NCBI GenBank assembly: GCA_028717445.1 | Contig: JAQUNU010000001.1 | Span: 1 to 33,424, forward strand | Direction of reading: 5' to 3' | Length of the DNA: 33,424 nt | Source: Candidatus Portnoybacteria bacterium | GTDB taxonomy: Bacteria > Patescibacteriota > Minisyncoccia > Portnoybacterales > GWB1-42-6 | Shown here: one piece after another, positions 2,533-32,887 of the stretch | Position numbering within the stretch: the stretch's first letter is position 1 | Layout: the number at the start of each line of letters is the position of its first letter | The notes under the pieces: model-generated | Seen by the model: the letters and a program-made list of their open reading frames with translations, nothing else | What the model was told of the DNA's origin: nothing | The model's database searches: none | Translations under genes and position numbers: made by a program

Positions 2533-4112
2533 TGAAAAAGTTTGAGCTAAAAATATTTTTTAAAAAAGCTATCAGCGGCTGGCTGATCCTGACCACGCTC
2601 ATTCTTTGTTTTGCCGGAATGGCTTTGCCTGAAAAAAAAGCGGAAGCGGCCCTGGCCACCGAAGCGACGCAAGCCGCCCAAATGCTTCAGGATGGAGTTT
2701 TTTATTTTTCTGACGTTGCCTCAACCGTGGAAGACGAAGTTGTTCAAGGCGGCCAGCTTTCATTTCAGGGAATCATGTCCGCCATTGATGGCTGGTTTAA
2801 ATGGGACACTTTGATGGAAAGAGCCCTAAGATTGGCCTGGTATAAAATGAAGAGGCAAATTCTGCGGGACCTGGCCAATGCCATTCTCAACTGGGCCAAG
2901 GGGGAAGACGGAACTCCTGCTTTTGTCACGGATTGGAAGGGTTATTTATCGAATTTAGGCAAAAATGCCGTCACAAAACTGATCAATGACCAAATCAACA
3001 GCATTGCGATGTGCTTCAACTTTAGTCTCTCCCTAAAAGCCTGGATAAACTGGCAGGATATAAATCTAAATGACCAGCTGGCCTGCCCCATGACGCCGTT
3101 TGTTCTGCAGAACTTTTTATCCGATTTTCAGAGAGGCGGCTGGGACTCCTGGAAGAGCTTCATCAGCCCTTCGGGAAATATGTACGGCTCTTTTATGATC
3201 GTTTCGGACGAAATCCTCAAAGAAGAAGAAAGAGAACGCCAAGCGCAAACGTCCAAACTCATTGCCAATCAGGGATACAAAGGAAATGCGACCACGCCAG
3301 GCATTTTGCAAGCGCACGCGGTTAATGAGGCCGCAATGATGGAATGGACATATCTTATGAATTCCCAAGAGTTTGAAGAATTCGTTTTTGCTTTGGCTGA
3401 TGCCTTTATAATTCGCATTATCAGAGGCGGCGTTAGCGCCCTGCAAACAAACGACTATGACTATTCATCCGGACAGCCCGTAAGCGTCACTCCCCAAACA
3501 AACACCTATATCAACGCTTCCAGCGAAAAAGAAACGATCGATGAAATGAAAAACCGGCTAGCCCTGCTCACGGAAGCTCTGCAAGGGCTCCTGAATGAGC
3601 AAAATCAAAATTTATCCCTCATGCAGTCAATTAAAACAATCCAAAATACTCTGGCTTCGCGCGACTGCGCGCTAGCCTCTCTTCCCATCGATAACGAGCT
3701 CAACGCTTTAACAAACCAAATCAACCAAACACAAACAAGAATCAGCCAGGCCCAGCAAGCGGCTCTCGACAATGACGCTTTAATCAACGCCATCGCTTCG
3801 ATAGAGTCAGCGCAAGATTCGGGGGATCAAGCCGCGCTCGAAAGCGCTTCGACTGTTTATCAAACAACCAGAGAAAAAGCAGTCCAATCTTTCAGCGCTC
3901 TTCTGGGCAGCACTCAACGAGATCTAAATACTACTTTCAGCGAAATGAATTCCTATCTTCTGGCTGTCAACCGCCAGGCCAACACTTATTCCTCCAATCG
4001 TGGCATGGCAAGCATAGGCACAGGCCTGGAGGGCCGCCGCGCCGCGGAAAACCAGCTGCTTCTGGCCTGTCCGGAACCAATCGCCACCACAACGCCGAGT
4101 ATTTTATTTTAG
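2532..4112 (+). CDS. Hypothetical secreted or membrane-anchored protein with a Q/N-rich coiled-coil C-terminal half (T4SS-like cluster)
   Basis: The tracked ORF is 2529..4112 (TTG at 2529, ATG at 2532). There is an N-terminal hydrophobic segment (GWLILTTLILCFAGMALP). The C-terminal region is rich in Q, N, L and A heptad-like sequence. I recognise no family. Confidence 0.65.
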   Translation: MKKFELKIFFKKAISGWLILTTLILCFAGMALPEKKAEAALATEATQAAQMLQDGVFYFSDVASTVEDEVVQGGQLSFQGIMSAIDGWFKWDTLMERALRLAWYKMKRQILRDLANAILNWAKGEDGTPAFVTDWKGYLSNLGKNAVTKLINDQINSIAMCFNFSLSLKAWINWQDINLNDQLACPMTPFVLQNFLSDFQRGGWDSWKSFISPSGNMYGSFMIVSDEILKEEERERQAQTSKLIANQGYKGNATTPGILQAHAVNEAAMMEWTYLMNSQEFEEFVFALADAFIIRIIRGGVSALQTNDYDYSSGQPVSVTPQTNTYINASSEKETIDEMKNRLALLTEALQGLLNEQNQNLSLMQSIKTIQNTLASRDCALASLPIDNELNALTNQINQTQTRISQAQQAALDNDALINAIASIESAQDSGDQAALESASTVYQTTREKAVQSFSALLGSTQRDLNTTFSEMNSYLLAVNRQANTYSSNRGMASIGTGLEGRRAAENQLLLACPEPIATTTPSILF

Positions 4113-4133
4113 CTTCTTGCGCGCAAAAAATTA

Positions 4134-10852: not shown

Positions 10853-11704
10853 TTGAAAATCACTAAATTTTTTTTCGCAAATATTTTGCCCGCTTTTTAT
10901 TTTCTCTCCTGCTCGACCGCATTTGCCCTGGAATATCCCTTCGGCAATCTGTCGGCCAATCCCACTCCCTGCGAATATATTAAAACGGCATACATTTGGG
11001 GTCTGGGGATTGTCGGCACTCTGGCGGTGGCCGTGATCGCTTTTGGCGGTTTTCTTTACATGGTGGGGAAAGTGGAGCAGGGCAAAGACTACATCACTTC
11101 GGCGTTTTTGGGAATACTGCTGCTTTTTGGCGCTTACCTGATTCTCTACACTATTAATCCGGAATTGGCACAGTTGAAGTGCGAGATAAAGAATATGCAA
11201 CCCTTGGGAACTCCGCCCACCGGCGCTTCGGTGCCAATAACACCTGGCTCAACCACCGGCACTTCGCTTGGAGAACAGGCGGCTCGGGGCGCTTTGGCCA
11301 GCGGCGTAGGCGTAAAAGACGCTTGTCCGCCTGGGCAGGCGACCGGATGCGTTAGAATGGAGGGGATGAAGGATACAACCGTTAACGAAATAAATGATTT
11401 AGCCGGCAAAGTTGGGCCTGAAAATATCTACATTTCAGGCGGCACCGAAGGGTGCGGCGCCACTGGCTCAACAATTCATTCAACCGGCTCAGTCAGCCAT
11501 TGTTCCGGCGATAAGTATGACATGAGACAGAATAACACCGTTAATAATTATATCGAAAACGCTTTTGTAAAAATGCCCAATCGAAAATACGATGGCGCCG
11601 AAATGTGGATGGACCCAAAAACCGGAACCACTTATGCCAAAGAAATGGGCGTTGTAGGAACGGTTAACGGACCACACTGGGACGTGGCTGTCCGGAAAAT
11701 TTAA
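10853..11704 (+). CDS. VirB2/TrbC-like 'T4SS pilin' N-terminal module fused to a putative LAS/M15-type zinc peptidase (cell-wall hydrolase) domain
   Basis: 283 aa with a TTG start. It has a signal-like N-terminus and then two TM helices (IWGLGIVGTLAVAVIAFGGFLYM and FLGILLLFGAYLILYTINP), as in the Patescibacteria T4SS pilin family. A Pro/Thr linker follows. The C-terminal domain carries SHCSGDKYD (H-x3-G-x3-D) and GPHWDVAVR (H-x-D) motifs. Confidence 0.6.
   Translation: MKITKFFFANILPAFYFLSCSTAFALEYPFGNLSANPTPCEYIKTAYIWGLGIVGTLAVAVIAFGGFLYMVGKVEQGKDYITSAFLGILLLFGAYLILYTINPELAQLKCEIKNMQPLGTPPTGASVPITPGSTTGTSLGEQAARGALASGVGVKDACPPGQATGCVRMEGMKDTTVNEINDLAGKVGPENIYISGGTEGCGATGSTIHSTGSVSHCSGDKYDMRQNNTVNNYIENAFVKMPNRKYDGAEMWMDPKTGTTYAKEMGVVGTVNGPHWDVAVRKI
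10923..11200 (+). repeat. Direct repeat copy A (278 bp, identical to 11797-12074)
   Basis: A base-by-base read of both copies shows identity. Both the sense and the antisense ORF translations are also identical across the repeat. Confidence 0.95.
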
Positions 11705-11735: not shown

Positions 11736-12194
11736 GTGAAAAAATATTTTAAAATAATTTTTTCTTTGATCGGCCTAACCTTTCCGATTTTCTCCCTTGC
11801 CCTGGAATATCCCTTCGGCAATCTGTCGGCCAATCCCACTCCCTGCGAATATATTAAAACGGCATACATTTGGGGTCTGGGGATTGTCGGCACTCTGGCG
11901 GTGGCCGTGATCGCTTTTGGCGGTTTTCTTTACATGGTGGGGAAAGTGGAGCAGGGCAAAGACTACATCACTTCGGCGTTTTTGGGAATACTGCTGCTTT
12001 TTGGCGCTTACCTGATTCTCTACACTATTAATCCGGAATTGGCACAGTTGAAGTGCGAGATAAAGAATATGCAAAAATTTAATGAAGCGCCGCAACCGAC
12101 AAAAACGACGGACGAACCGCTCCCGCAATCGATGACCGAAAAAATAGATGCCGGCGCAACCAACCAAGACATAAAAGACGACATGTTAAAATAA
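11736..12194 (+). CDS. VirB2/TrbC-like 'T4SS pilin' paralog with a short hydrophilic tail
   Basis: 152 aa with a GTG start. Residues ALEYPFGNL...AQLKCEIKNMQ are 100% identical to the preceding gene. The signal peptide and C-terminal tail are unrelated to it. Confidence 0.7.
   Translation: MKKYFKIIFSLIGLTFPIFSLALEYPFGNLSANPTPCEYIKTAYIWGLGIVGTLAVAVIAFGGFLYMVGKVEQGKDYITSAFLGILLLFGAYLILYTINPELAQLKCEIKNMQKFNEAPQPTKTTDEPLPQSMTEKIDAGATNQDIKDDMLK
11797..12074 (+). repeat. Direct repeat copy B (278 bp, identical to 10923-11200)
   Basis: Same as copy A; the offset between copies is 874 bp. Confidence 0.95.
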
Positions 12195-22166: not shown

Positions 22167-22301
22167 TGTTACTTTTCTGCTGTCAGAAAAGTAACATAAA
22201 GACTGCTTTGCCGGGCATAAAATTTTAAGAAAGATCGGATTCACTCCGCTCATCTCGATTTTCTGATAAAATTTTTGCCAGGCAAGATTGAAGAAAAGGC
22301 C
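22167..22301 (+). repeat. Intergenic repeat element, copy 1 (inverted partner at 27503-27637)
   Basis: About 135 nt and about 94% identical to the reverse complement of 27503-27637. It starts with a 15-bp hairpin (22165-22198) 9 nt after the dnaN stop. It contains an extended -10 (tgataaaat, 22264-22272) and the palindrome ttgccaggcaa (22275-22285). Confidence 0.9.
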
Positions 22302-26637: not shown

Positions 26638-26684
26638 CTATCTAAATAAAACAACCCTTAAAAAGGGTTGTTTTATTTAGATAG
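26638..26684. terminator. 22-bp perfect hairpin (bidirectional terminator-like)
   Basis: ctatctaaataaaacaaccctt-aaa-aagggttgttttatttagatag. It lies 15 nt downstream of the acidic small ORF on the minus strand. Confidence 0.6.
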
Positions 26685-27502: not shown

Positions 27503-27637
27503 GGCTTTTTCTTCAATCTTGCCTGGCAAAAATTTTATCAGAAAATCGAGATGAGCGGAGTGAATCCGATCTTTCTTAAAATTTTATACCCGGCAAAGCA
27601 GTCTTTATGTTGCTTTTCTGCTGTCAGAAAACTAACA
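27503..27637 (-). repeat. Intergenic repeat element, copy 2 (inverted partner of 22167-22301)
   Basis: It is the reverse complement of copy 1 with about 8 substitutions, 4 of them in the hairpin loop. It lies between the yebC stop and the ruvC start, in the same orientation relative to local transcription as copy 1. The extended -10 is at 27532-27540 on the minus strand. Confidence 0.9.
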
Positions 27638-29878: not shown

Positions 29879-30892
29879 TTAGAGCAATTTTTTCTGCGCT
29901 GGCTCGGGAAATTTAAGGGAGAGATGAGCAAAGGCCTCTTTGGTTGCCATGCGGCCACGGGGCGTGCGAAGCAGGAAGCCGATGCGCATAAGATAGGGCT
30001 CATAGACATCGGTGATAGTGTCTTCGTCTTCACAGGTGGCGGCAGCGAGAGCCTGTAATCCGACCGGACCGCCGTCAAATTTTTCGGCGATAATGGAAAG
30101 GATCTGCCGGTCTATGGGCTCAAGGCCGAGCACGTCGATTTCTAGCATTTTAAAAGCCTCTTTAACAATTCCGCGCGTGATCTTGCCGCTGCCTCTCACC
30201 TGGGCGAAATCTCGGACGCGTTTGAGCAGGCGATTGGCTACCCGGGGGGTGAACCTTGAGCAGCAAGCAATGTCCGAAGCGGCATCGTGATCAATTTCAA
30301 TATTTAAAATTTTCGATGAGCGTTCAACAATTTTCTTGATATCTTCGGTTTCGTAAAAATCAAGCCGGAAAGAAAGGCCAAAGCGGGAGCGCAGAGGAGA
30401 AGAAAGAAGGGCTGGCCGGGTGGTGGCCGCGATTAAGGTGAATTTTGGTAGATCCAGCTGCAGAGTTCTGGCCGAAGGTCCTTTGCCAATGACAATGTCT
30501 AATCGAAAATCCTCCATCGCGGGATAGAGCACTTCCTCGATCATTTTATTCAGTCGGTGCGCTTCGTCTACAAAAAGAATGTCGCCATCCGAAAGATTGG
30601 TCAGGATTGAACCAAGGTCGCCGACGCGCTCAATGGCCGCGCCCGAGGTGGCCTTAATTGAGGATTTTGTTTCGTTGGCTATAATATGAGCTAAGGTTGT
30701 TTTTCCCAATCCGGAAGCGCCCGAAAGCAAAAGATGCTCAATTGGCTCGCCGCGTTTTTTAGCCGCTTGAATCAATATCTTTAAACTTTCTTTGGTTTTT
30801 GACTGGCCTTGGTAATCGTCAAAATTCCTGGGACGCAGGGTTCGGTCAAGAATCTCGTCTTCGGGAACAGATTTAGGGCAGATAATCGGCAT
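29879..30892 (-). CDS. ruvB: Holliday junction branch migration helicase RuvB
   Basis: 337 aa with LRPRNFDDYQGQ, Walker A GASGLGKTTLA, Walker B LFVDEAHRL and the RTPRGR motif. Confidence 0.95.
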   Translation of the reverse strand: MPIICPKSVPEDEILDRTLRPRNFDDYQGQSKTKESLKILIQAAKKRGEPIEHLLLSGASGLGKTTLAHIIANETKSSIKATSGAAIERVGDLGSILTNLSDGDILFVDEAHRLNKMIEEVLYPAMEDFRLDIVIGKGPSARTLQLDLPKFTLIAATTRPALLSSPLRSRFGLSFRLDFYETEDIKKIVERSSKILNIEIDHDAASDIACCSRFTPRVANRLLKRVRDFAQVRGSGKITRGIVKEAFKMLEIDVLGLEPIDRQILSIIAEKFDGGPVGLQALAAATCEDEDTITDVYEPYLMRIGFLLRTPRGRMATKEAFAHLSLKFPEPAQKKLL

Positions 30893-30901
30893 AGGCAGGG
30901 G

Positions 30902-30930
30902 TTGACAAGCTTAAAAATCTATGATAAAAT
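30902..30930 (+). promoter_or_regulatory. Consensus promoter TTGACA-17-TAAAAT (plus strand), pointing away from ruvB
   Basis: ttgaca lies at 30902-30907 and taaaat at 30925-30930. No protein-coding ORF follows on the plus strand. Confidence 0.55.
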
Positions 30931-30936
30931 GCTTTA

Positions 30937-31145
30937 TTCTTTCAGTTTTTTAAGCGTATTTTAAAAGATAGCGGTTTTTAACCTGTAGGCGGTCAAGGTC
31001 CTTATTTAAGCGGGGACTTATCGGGATTTTTCTTAGGCTCTAAAGGACGATTTGGTTTCGGCTGGATCGCTCCTCGGAAAAATTTTTACCCTCACGTTTA
31101 ACGCGAGGAGACTGCCTACAGATTAAAAGCCGCTATTTTATTTTG
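30937..31145 (+). ncRNA. Candidate ~200-nt structured small RNA (class unknown; 6S-like architecture possible)
   Basis: 30968-30994 pairs with 31110-31136 over 27 bp (24 Watson-Crick pairs, 2 G-U pairs, 1 C-A mismatch on the plus strand), enclosing 115 nt. A U-tract follows (attttattttg). The consensus promoter lies just upstream. The strand call is tentative. Confidence 0.4.
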
Positions 31146-31147
31146 TA

Positions 31148-32887
31148 TTATATTTCTGTTTCTGACAGTTCGCCCGTGACTCTTTCAATTTCTTCAATAC
31201 TGGTAATGCCGTCAACCGCTTTTAACAAGCCGTCTTGGCGCAGCGTGACCATTCCCGCCGCCTTGGCGGCTTTTTCTATTTCCAGCGTTTGAGTATTTTT
31301 GGCGATAAGCTCCTGAATTTTTTCGTCTTTGAAAAAAACTTCGTAAATGGCGATTTGGCCGCGGTATCCCAGGCCCTGGCATTCGTCGCAGCTGCCCGGC
31401 TGGAAAAATTCTAAATTATCCAAATTCTTTTCAATCGCCAAGCCCTTCAAATTCTCTTTGATTGCGTCCAGAACTTTTTTTTCGGGATGATACGGTTTTT
31501 TGCATTTCGGACAGAGCCGGCGGACTAAGCGCTGGGCCATAAAAAAATTCATGGCCAAAGCCAGATCTCCCGGTCCAATCCCGAAGTTAAAAAGACGCTG
31601 GACCGAGGCGGTGGCGTCGTTGGCGTGGAGAGTGGAAACAACTAAATGGCCGGTCAGAGAGGACTGGATGGCAACCTTGGCGGTCTCTTCGTCTCTGATC
31701 TCGCCGACCATGATTACATTCGGGTTTTGCCGCAAGATAGCCCGAAGCGCCTGAGCAAAGCTATATTTTTCTTGGGTGGTCGCTTGCAGCTGCCCCGAGG
31801 CGATCATGATTGGTCGGCTTGAAGACGTGTCTTTTTGGCTGACTTGTGTCTGGACGATGCCCGGTATCCGATATTCAACCGGATCTTCAATTGTGATTAT
31901 TTTTACTTTCGGATCATTAAGATAATTTAAGAACGCGTAAAGCGTGGTTGTTTTTCCGGAACCGGTCGGGCCGGTATTTAAAATAAGGCCATTGGGTTTT
32001 TTGATCGCGTGTTTTATGGTTTCAAGCAGTTTGCTTTCAAGCCCCAAGTTTTCAATCGATAATTTTTGGACGCCGATTCCCAGAAGCCGGATAACGATGG
32101 TTTCGTTTTCCGCTTCCGGCAAAATAGAAATTCTGGCTTCGATCTCTTTGATAATTTCTATCTGTTGGTTTTGTTTTTTGACGATCTGGATCGTGAAGCG
32201 TCCGTCTTGGCTGGTGTCATGCACATTGATTTTCATGTCAGAAAGAATTTTGATTCTTGTGAGCAGGGCTTGGTAGGCGCGGAGCGGAAAAGAGGAGATA
32301 TTCTGCAGAACGCCGTCGATCCGGTAGCGTAAGCGGATTTCGTTGGCCGGTTCGATATGGATGTCGCCGGCCTCGGCTTTTAGAGCTCCGGCGATGATGG
32401 TCTCCAAAAGTTCCGTTGTCGAGATCGAGTTAAAGGTGTCTTTCAGCTCGCTGACCTTTTTTATTCTTTGGTTGAATTGTTCAAGATTTTCCTGTTCGAT
32501 TCTGATTTTTCCGACAAGAGGCGCTTCTTTGGCGGCGCTTTGATAAAAATTCAAAGCGCGCTTGAGGCTTGAGGCCGAGATGATCGTTTTAGTCACCGAG
32601 AGGCCCATGTGTTCGAGCTGGCTGATTTTTGCCAGGGTGGTTTTATTTTCAGGATCGACTAAGCCCACGGTTATATCTTTATTGTTTCGTTTCAAAACCA
32701 CGATTTCTCCCTCTTGCGCTTCTAATCGCGGGATAGTGGAGAGGACGTCGGCGTTTATCGGAAAGATTTGCAGATTTAAATAAGGCAGATTTTTCTTCTT
32801 GGCGCTTCGCTCCGCCTCTTGTTCTTCTTGATCCCGGTGGATTTGTTCAATTTTTTCGCTGACTTTTAAATTTTTTTGTGTAGGCAT
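31148..32887 (-). CDS. pilB: Type IV pilus / type II secretion ATPase, PilB/GspE family
   Basis: 579 aa with Walker A GPTGSGKTTT, an Asp box IEDPVEY, Walker B IMVGEIRD, a His box TGHLVVSTLHAND and a tetracysteine CPKC...CDEC motif. Confidence 0.9.
   Translation of the reverse strand: MPTQKNLKVSEKIEQIHRDQEEQEAERSAKKKNLPYLNLQIFPINADVLSTIPRLEAQEGEIVVLKRNNKDITVGLVDPENKTTLAKISQLEHMGLSVTKTIISASSLKRALNFYQSAAKEAPLVGKIRIEQENLEQFNQRIKKVSELKDTFNSISTTELLETIIAGALKAEAGDIHIEPANEIRLRYRIDGVLQNISSFPLRAYQALLTRIKILSDMKINVHDTSQDGRFTIQIVKKQNQQIEIIKEIEARISILPEAENETIVIRLLGIGVQKLSIENLGLESKLLETIKHAIKKPNGLILNTGPTGSGKTTTLYAFLNYLNDPKVKIITIEDPVEYRIPGIVQTQVSQKDTSSSRPIMIASGQLQATTQEKYSFAQALRAILRQNPNVIMVGEIRDEETAKVAIQSSLTGHLVVSTLHANDATASVQRLFNFGIGPGDLALAMNFFMAQRLVRRLCPKCKKPYHPEKKVLDAIKENLKGLAIEKNLDNLEFFQPGSCDECQGLGYRGQIAIYEVFFKDEKIQELIAKNTQTLEIEKAAKAAGMVTLRQDGLLKAVDGITSIEEIERVTGELSETEI

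Follow-up and report, generated by a model that had tools for sequence, protein, structure and literature searches.

Parcubacteria and their relatives, whose genomes are tiny and contain few regulators that can be recognised, represent a large, almost wholly uncultivated share of the diversity of bacteria. In the described pairs oxyS/oxyR, gcvB/gcvA and sgrS/sgrR, a small RNA (sRNA) gene lies divergent from a functionally linked gene, which encodes the transcription factor of the sRNA, and these sRNAs are small, Hfq-dependent and act by base pairing. The orphan noncoding RNA (ncRNA) classes raiA motif/ModT, OLE, ROOL and GOLLD (PMC10861870, PMC11706538, PMC5737381) are lineage-wide and independently transcribed, combine an elaborate covarying fold with few invariant nucleotides and no coding potential, and were discovered from sequence alone. 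The element described here lies in the 255-nt spacer, which contains no open reading frame (ORF), between pilB and ruvB of a 33,424-nt contig of a Candidatus Portnoybacteria bacterium (JAQUNU010000001.1, hereafter the window). It is like these orphan classes in all of those respects, its independent transcription being predicted. It differs from them in sequence and fold, in being much smaller than OLE, ROOL or GOLLD, in being found only in Parcubacteria and the candidate phyla radiation (CPR) as far as seen, and in its unusually strict synteny. As in the oxyS/oxyR-type pairs, the RNA and a protein gene stand back to back with a short common control region, in an arrangement conserved in evolution; however, a DNA motor protein takes the place of the transcription factor, and the RNA, unlike those sRNAs, is large and extensively folded. 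Bacterial Y RNA (YrlA), with its Rsr/Ro partner, also shows a long terminal helix made from both ends and a multi-hairpin module atop, but the RNA of the window has neither a nearby rsr nor a T-arm-like loop.

The element is a conserved RNA gene and not a chance palindrome. That an RNA gene exists in the ruvB-pilB spacer is highly likely, and the reading that we prefer, to which we give as a whole a probability of about 55%, is that positions 30937-31146 of the window (plus strand) are the gene for a stable structured ncRNA of an uncatalogued family. The conserved fold consists of a closing helix of 22-30 bp (P1) that pairs both ends, and a junction with a variable hairpin (H1), a long arm (H2) and a small hairpin (H3). 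As judged from comparison of sequences, the family is real, previously uncatalogued, near-universal in Parcubacteria and locked to ruvB.

The distribution was studied in 80 Parcubacteria ruvB loci taken from GTDB species representatives, four of which extend too little upstream for a judgement. Searched with a single sequence by nhmmer, six of these loci gave the element at E<0.01 and five others gave it with weaker scores, just upstream of ruvB and opposite to it in strand. Covariance models, whose E-values are rough owing to a shortened calibration, extended this to 55 loci (model R1, built from 11 sequences) and then to 58 (model R2, built from 48), immediately upstream of ruvB and on the opposite strand. 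With the filters off, eight further loci gave weak full-length matches at the exact syntenic spot, and another five were recognised from their fold, or else from the conserved H2 motif combined with a TTGACA box adjoining ruvB. Overall, about 71 of the 76 assessable loci carry the element. According to the record titles they cover Moraniibacteriota, Sungiibacteriota, Yanofskybacteria, Nomurabacteria, Yonathbacteria, Paceibacterota, Minisyncoccota and "Parcubacteria group".

To avoid the circularity of sampling anchored on ruvB, metagenomes were also searched with a pattern drawn from the RNA alone. The pattern gave 120 matches, most of them by chance, among which the covariance model recognised 16 true members; wherever the contig reaches, all 16 lie between a convergent pilB-type gene and a divergent ruvB. 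As a negative control, 517 kb of viral contigs gave 62 chance matches to the pattern and none to the covariance model. Throughout Parcubacteria the RNA gene occupies one invariable place in the genome, divergent from ruvB. Fold, consensus promoter and exact position beside ruvB are kept even where RuvB has only 52-75% identity to that of the window, and the RNA is therefore very likely important to the cells.

Covariation was counted on 70 members aligned to model R2. Standard pairs occupy 87.2% of the pair cells, versus 43-47% when the partners are slid by one to three columns, and compensatory double changes were found in 50 of the 54 pairs. The covariation score of 0.56 is to be compared with 0.22 for shuffles, none of 500 reaching the observed value, and with 0.11-0.16 for the slid versions. 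The closing helix, for which the preliminary description had asked for covariation in relatives, shows it in every modelled pair (Table 1). Minimum free energy (MFE) folds, made independently of the alignment, gave the same closing helix with exactly three branches in 48 of 69 members, with a P1 of 17-26 bp, mostly 21-25, and very few bulges. In the 70 aligned members, G-U cells number 536 and A-C cells 118. Since a wobble pair is an A-C mismatch on the other strand, this excess shows that the RNA is read from the plus strand of the window, away from ruvB. The proposal of a discrete structured RNA on that strand is thereby upheld, and the promoter and termination signals described below have the same orientation.

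The nearly invariant sites are few: CAA/UUG atop P1, GG/CC in the middle of H2, and a step of U.G, G.U and G-C in the apical stem of H2, conserved in 62, 67 and 70 of the 70 members, respectively. Elsewhere the family is variable. H1 ranges from 11 to 36 nt and is absent in some members (L123, L117, L124 and L093), which have about 2 nt on the 5' side and a three-way junction; the junction strands between helices are 0-5 nt long. The H2 tetraloop occurs as UUCG, UCCG or UACG, and an extra hairpin substitutes for it in distant members. A few invariant sites on a freely covarying scaffold are what a protein recognition surface would look like, which suggests a ribonucleoprotein (RNP) or a decoy RNA acting in trans; the tandem U.G/G.U with its G-C, the GG/CC and the CAA/UUG would be the surface recognised, while the covarying helices would only hold the shape. 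Two further features were dropped, a possible loop-loop pairing of the H1 loop with the H2 internal loop and motifs of CCUC type that resemble an anti-Shine-Dalgarno sequence, both being seen in Moraniibacteriota and in neither the window nor the Sungiibacteriota-type members. In five Moraniibacteriota loci (L040, L045, L016, L041 and L035), the transcript is predicted to open with conserved bases (..AUUUCGCUUAACAA..) that are able to pair with GCGAAAU, located immediately 3' of P1, with one G.U pair in L035. The RNA of that group may therefore have an additional terminal helix and a greater length, of about 230 nt.

In the window, the plus strand of 30965-31139 folds into a 30-bp closing helix around three hairpins. 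A helix of 30968-30994 with 31110-31136 had been noticed before; its departures from perfect complementarity on the plus strand are three (U-G, C-A and G-U), and an arm pair of such quality was found in none of 100 shuffles. It extends further than first described, comprising 29 pairs and the mismatch C30982/A31122 over the two P1 strands of Table 1, and its arm sequence is single-copy within the window. The folding energy of the 214-nt plus strand is -79.7 kcal/mol, versus -50.5 +/- 4.3 for shuffles (z = -6.83), and that of the minus strand is -62.6 kcal/mol (z = -5.53). The RNA core measures 167 nt. Mutually exclusive pairings had been proposed for ctcctcg, either with cgaggag or with cgggga. 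The string cgaggag is present, at 31104-31110 and not at 31103-09, but inspection of the alignment showed that these alternatives are not conserved in other lineages. The pairings conserved in the family are those of CC 31072-73 with GG 31045-46 and of CCUC 31090-93 with GAGG 31105-08. Likewise, the long closing stem and the total of about 170-210 nt hold as first described, but what had been taken for a large asymmetric internal region is a four-way junction of covarying hairpins.

The promoter TTGACA-17-TAAAAT at 30902-30930, which faces the ORF-free region, is present as described, with a score of 11/12, its -10 hexamer at 30925-30930 and a TG at 30922-30923. Only two exact TTGACA-N17-TAnAAT sites exist in the window, this one and another at 26962-26934 on the minus strand, and the flanks that these two were said to have in common are real. 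Across the family, the spacer between the RNA core and ruvB contains an RNA-sense promoter scoring at least 10/12 in 51 of 54 loci, with an exact TTGACA in 53; the best promoter in the ruvB sense scores only 7-10/12. The -35 box stands 9 nt from the ruvB ATG in the window and 5-35 nt from it in many loci. The leader, from the -10 box to P1, measures 11 to about 300 nt, and leader and spacer lengths vary from 48 to 360 nt. In six Sungiibacteriota-type loci (L044, L051, L046, L026, L007 and L036), a small GC hairpin with a U-run lies between the consensus promoter and the RNA core, and looks like a putative leader terminator or attenuator.

At the 3' side, the U-rich tract reported after the helix was found at 31137-31146 and ends 2 nt before the pilB stop codon (31148-31150, minus strand). 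A U-run occurs within 12 nt of P1 in 21 of 69 members, the window included, and at least 28 of the 69 show a separate hairpin-plus-U terminator after P1, according to a crude scan that missed several visible ones. In the window P1 is bordered by an A-run and a U-run, and its minus-strand image is also followed by CUUUUAAAAU. RNA polymerase would start at about 30937 and stop at the U-rich tract after P1, to give a transcript of about 210 nt. Its paired termini and consensus promoter point to an RNA that may be abundant, long-lived and of a housekeeping kind.

Of the 53 loci in which the neighbour on the 3' side was scored, 49 have it convergent with the RNA; the RNA is therefore not a leader for the downstream gene. 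In nine of ten translated neighbours, among them the doubled form described below, a PilB/GspE-type Walker A box (GPTGSGKTTT) was found, and the tenth is an unrelated neighbour in the same direction. Many loci show a bidirectional terminator between pilB and the RNA. In many Moraniibacteriota (L041, L035, L042, L037 and others; about positions 3-2627), the pilB-type neighbour encodes about 860 amino acids (aa) in two tandem PilB/GspE ATPase units, with two GPTGSGKTTT boxes. In loci of Yonathbacteria, Nomurabacteria and Paceibacterota type, pilB ends about 750 nt before the RNA gene and other sequence is inserted between them (about positions 1950-2690; L049, L053, L054, L056, L058, L060, L061, L070, L071 and L078).

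Table 1. Features of the RNA gene and of its two flanking genes, in window positions.
Feature	Position	Strand	Remarks
ruvB	29879..30892	-	Pfam RuvB_N, AAA_lid_4, RuvB_C; invariant divergent neighbour of the RNA gene
-35 hexamer TTGACA	30902..30907	+	9 nt from the ruvB start codon (opposite strand); exact in 53/54 homologous loci
Extended -10 box TGATAAAAT	30922..30930	+	Predicted transcription start at ~30937, from spacing only
A/U-rich 5' leader (predicted)	30937..30964	+	11 to ~300 nt among members
P1, 5' strand (closing helix)	30965..30994	+	22/22 modelled pairs with compensatory changes (70 members)
H1 hairpin, 8 bp, 8-nt loop	30996..31019	+	Variable arm, absent in some members; 7/7 pairs with compensatory changes
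H2 long arm	31023..31086	+	11-bp basal stem, asymmetric internal loop, apical stem with the most conserved motif
H2 apical motif	GG 31045-46 with CC 31072-73; U31053 G31054 G31055 U31056 with G31061 C31062 U31063 G31064	+	
H2 loop UUCG	31057-60	+	Variable hairpin in its place in distant members
H3 hairpin (CCUC/GAGG and CGU/ACG)	31090..31108	+	8/8 pairs with compensatory changes
P1, 3' strand (closing helix)	31110..31139	+	Complementarity, covariation and fold
U-rich tract UUUUAUUUUG	31137..31146	+	Directly after P1; probable 3' end, with P1 as terminator stem
pilB/GspE-type ATPase	31148..32887	-	Pfam T2SSE, 4e-107; usual convergent neighbour

The spacer belongs to a run of minus-strand genes for a PilB/GspE ATPase, ruvB, an LTD-domain protein, yebC and ruvC. 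The RuvB of the window is at most 75% identical to that of any species representative, and its close relatives are all CPR metagenome-assembled genomes (MAGs), as for a Patescibacteria/Parcubacteria-type sequence. ARAGORN found no tRNA or tmRNA.

At gathering thresholds, Rfam 15 scanned over the window and 20 homologous loci gave no match of the element to any family, 6S, signal recognition particle (SRP) RNA, Y RNA and RNase P included. At E<=10, three divergent members (the window, L041 and L052) gave chance matches only, to microRNA and small nucleolar RNA models. Our literature search found no RNA described at a ruvB locus and no ncRNA class specific to Patescibacteria, and Rfam 15 and the literature together yielded no ncRNA class described specifically for Parcubacteria and their relatives. 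The element is thus uncatalogued. A DUF3800-V RNA (RF02964, 64 bits) was seen at 4030-4129 (plus strand) of L052, a Patescibacteria MAG, just downstream of ruvB, and is unrelated to the element.

Individual classes were considered in turn. Domain IV of SRP RNA has a consensus of a GNRA tetraloop and conserved symmetric and asymmetric loops (AGCA etc.); the RNA of the window has a UNCG loop or a variable hairpin in H2, lacks the AGCA motif and matches neither 4.5S/Bacteria_small_SRP nor large_SRP. RNase P RNA, which is characterised by a P4 core and the conserved regions CR-I to CR-V, is likewise without a match and measures 300-400 nt, versus 170 nt here, and CPR genomes carry their own diverged type-A RNase P RNA (PMC8172020). 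Bacterial Y RNA, which has a tRNA-like module and is encoded next to rsr, was rejected on the lack of an Rfam match and on neighbours, since every member has ruvB beside it and most also have a pilB-type ATPase. A retron msr-msd ncRNA would be flanked by a reverse transcriptase, instead of ruvB and pilB as in all loci here, and would occur as a mobile or defence island, whereas the distribution is single-locus and looks vertical. An rRNA fragment or 5S-like RNA was discarded, no local match to any rRNA model being found at E<=10. A cis-regulatory leader or riboswitch is incompatible with an RNA strand opposite to ruvB and with the convergent gene downstream.

As to what the RNA does, we propose that it acts in trans as a protein-binding or scaffold RNA, a mode to which we give a little less than even odds. 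Several points weigh against the reading as a whole. The transcript, its ends and its abundance are predictions from sequence, and a protein partner and action in trans are what we infer. So strict a linkage to ruvB is not what one usually sees with a housekeeping RNA that acts in trans, and may point to a role in cis, at the locus itself. RNase III is likely to accept a near-perfect helix of 22-30 bp as a substrate, and the mature form could then be shorter. Furthermore, the alignment was fitted to the model, which somewhat inflates the pairing percentages. The lower helix of H2, added by hand to the MAFFT alignment, is weakly supported (59-69% paired), which makes this part of the model unreliable.

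The local role is the alternative that survives best, although we consider it unlikely. The RNA would be a regulator of ruvB, and sometimes of pilB, acting through the short divergent control region that the genes have in common, where transcription from the RNA promoter sets expression. In a variant, the RNA would pair with overlapping 5' ends of ruvB or 3' ends of pilB transcripts, followed by RNase III cleavage. The linkage with ruvB is invariant in every member found, the RNA-first search included, and it is with ruvB that the linkage holds, because the RNA stays beside this gene where pilB is about 750 nt away or replaced. Given the closeness of the -35 box to the ruvB ATG and the lack of a ruvB-sense consensus promoter in the spacer, ruvB and the RNA gene must share or compete for the control region. 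In the window the 3' end of pilB abuts the RNA, so that transcript ends could overlap, and since the minus-strand image of P1 has its own tract, a pilB transcript could extend over the entire RNA gene in antisense. However, antisense or interference alone needs no covarying four-way junction, no invariant G.U pairs and no paired termini, the bidirectional terminator between pilB and the RNA removes the overlap in many loci, and the leader and spacer lengths vary widely.

It is also conceivable, though rather unlikely, that the RNA founds an undescribed class, near-universal in Parcubacteria, with a function tied to ruvB, its invariant partner gene. It might then serve the RuvB branch-migration motor, as RNA cofactor or riboregulator, or have such a part in the DNA-uptake/recombination route of the type IV pilus, and would not be a housekeeping RNA of a generic kind. 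The reduced-genome bacteria of the CPR are thought to depend on such a route of type IV pilus DNA uptake and recombination.

A functional analogue of 6S RNA, that is, a rod-shaped RNA that mimics an open promoter, sequesters the sigma-70 holoenzyme and is freed by product-RNA synthesis, appears quite unlikely. The likeness to 6S RNA (ssrS, RF00013) lies in the length of about 170-210 nt, the rod-like shape with two long helices (P1 and H2 are coaxial-looking around the centre), the paired ends, the strong consensus promoter of sigma-70 type and the presumed high abundance, although such size, termini and promoter are common to many other RNAs. In some lineages the bubble strands of 6S RNA form small hairpins, which counts in favour of this view, and no canonical 6S RNA was seen in the 33-kb window and about 123 kb of ruvB loci, weak evidence given that scope. 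The 6S resemblance suggested in the preliminary description nevertheless failed both as membership and as architecture. RF00013 and related models are silent even at E<=10 in the three divergent members. The place of the open central bubble is taken by H1 and H3, which are real helices (7/7 and 8/8 pairs with compensatory changes), with only 0-5 unpaired nt between helices in a closed three- or four-way junction. The 5' side is dispensable, and members without H1, with their 2 nt or so on that side, leave no template strand for a product RNA. The conserved bases lie in the apical stem of H2 and atop P1 instead of the centre, which in 6S RNA is the site of the bubble, and the gene is locked to ruvB.

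P1 may alternatively be a stalk for RNase III, cut off like the stems that flank rRNAs, so that the RNA is a precursor of a mature H1-H2-H3 RNA of about 115-125 nt. That the length of P1 stays nearly constant throughout the family, at about two helical turns and with hardly any bulges, fits this view, as does the strong promoter; the view is compatible with our reading and not opposed to it. We hold it to be improbable: the cleavage is purely hypothetical, the three hairpins would be left with no closing helix, and the invariant CAA/UUG atop P1 suggests that P1 is part of the functional structure.

There is very little to recommend the view that the element is only a bidirectional terminator between the convergent transcripts of pilB and of the RNA promoter, or a 5' leader of ruvB on the minus strand, both of which had been offered earlier as alternatives. 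P1 with its A-run and U-run could stop transcription both ways in the window, and the minus strand folds well (z = -5.5). A terminator, however, needs no 115 nt of conserved, covarying internal structure such as P1 encloses, and the members with a separate canonical terminator after P1 are at least 28 of 69. P1 may end its own transcript, given the U-run that follows it here and in 21 of 69 members, but bidirectional termination is at most a secondary role of P1 in the window. The minus-strand leader is rejected by the G-U and A-C counts, by the fixed G.U (67/70) and U.G (62/70), which are mismatches on that strand, and by the conserved promoter, which faces the plus sense.

An element acting as DNA, whether as a miniature inverted-repeat transposable element (MITE), as a mobile inverted repeat of another kind or as a cruciform presented to RuvAB in imitation of a Holliday junction, has next to no probability in spite of a 27-30-bp inverted repeat with a 115-nt spacer beside a Holliday-junction motor gene, for it is single-copy in the window, occupies the ruvB locus in every case, has diverged along with the genomes in keeping with vertical inheritance, carries the strand-asymmetric G-U bias that is a signature of RNA, and in the RNA-sense flanks examined is accompanied by a promoter and termination signals and no other repeats, no search having been aimed at target-site duplications.

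The RNA gives a concrete and presumably abundant target for metatranscriptomics, pull-downs and structure work, and its covariance model can improve the annotation of MAGs. It also offers a testable link between an RNA and the genes of DNA uptake and recombination. If it proves to be associated with polymerase, RuvB or the ribosome, it would be a new entry in the short list of broadly conserved bacterial RNP RNAs.

Other repeats and promoters were observed in the window. The second TTGACA-N17-TAnAAT promoter, at 26962-26934 (minus strand), precedes an extremely acidic ORF of 56 aa (start 26865, stop 26697-26695; MTAKLFLNLDNEELLDEESEEE...), the region of which ends in a perfect 22-bp hairpin at 26638-26684. 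A 135-nt intergenic module is found in two inverted copies, 94% identical, at 22167-22301 (plus strand) and 27503-27637 (minus strand). In each copy a palindromic hairpin (GTTACTTTTCTG..CAGAAAAGTAAC), immediately behind a stop codon, opens the module, and the next 100 nt or so contain a TGATAAAAT box and a GCCGGGCA/TGCCAGGC pairing. The two copies bracket a 5.2-kb segment that contains PBP1A, the acidic ORF and ruvC. Possible readings of the module are a terminator-promoter cassette that was duplicated, another small RNA, or an invertible segment with the copies as its arms. Finally, a direct repeat of 278 nt, 100% identical, is located at 10923-11200 and 11797-12074, 874 nt apart and inside the ORFs 10853-11704 and 11736-12194; either the duplication took place very recently or the assembly is at fault.
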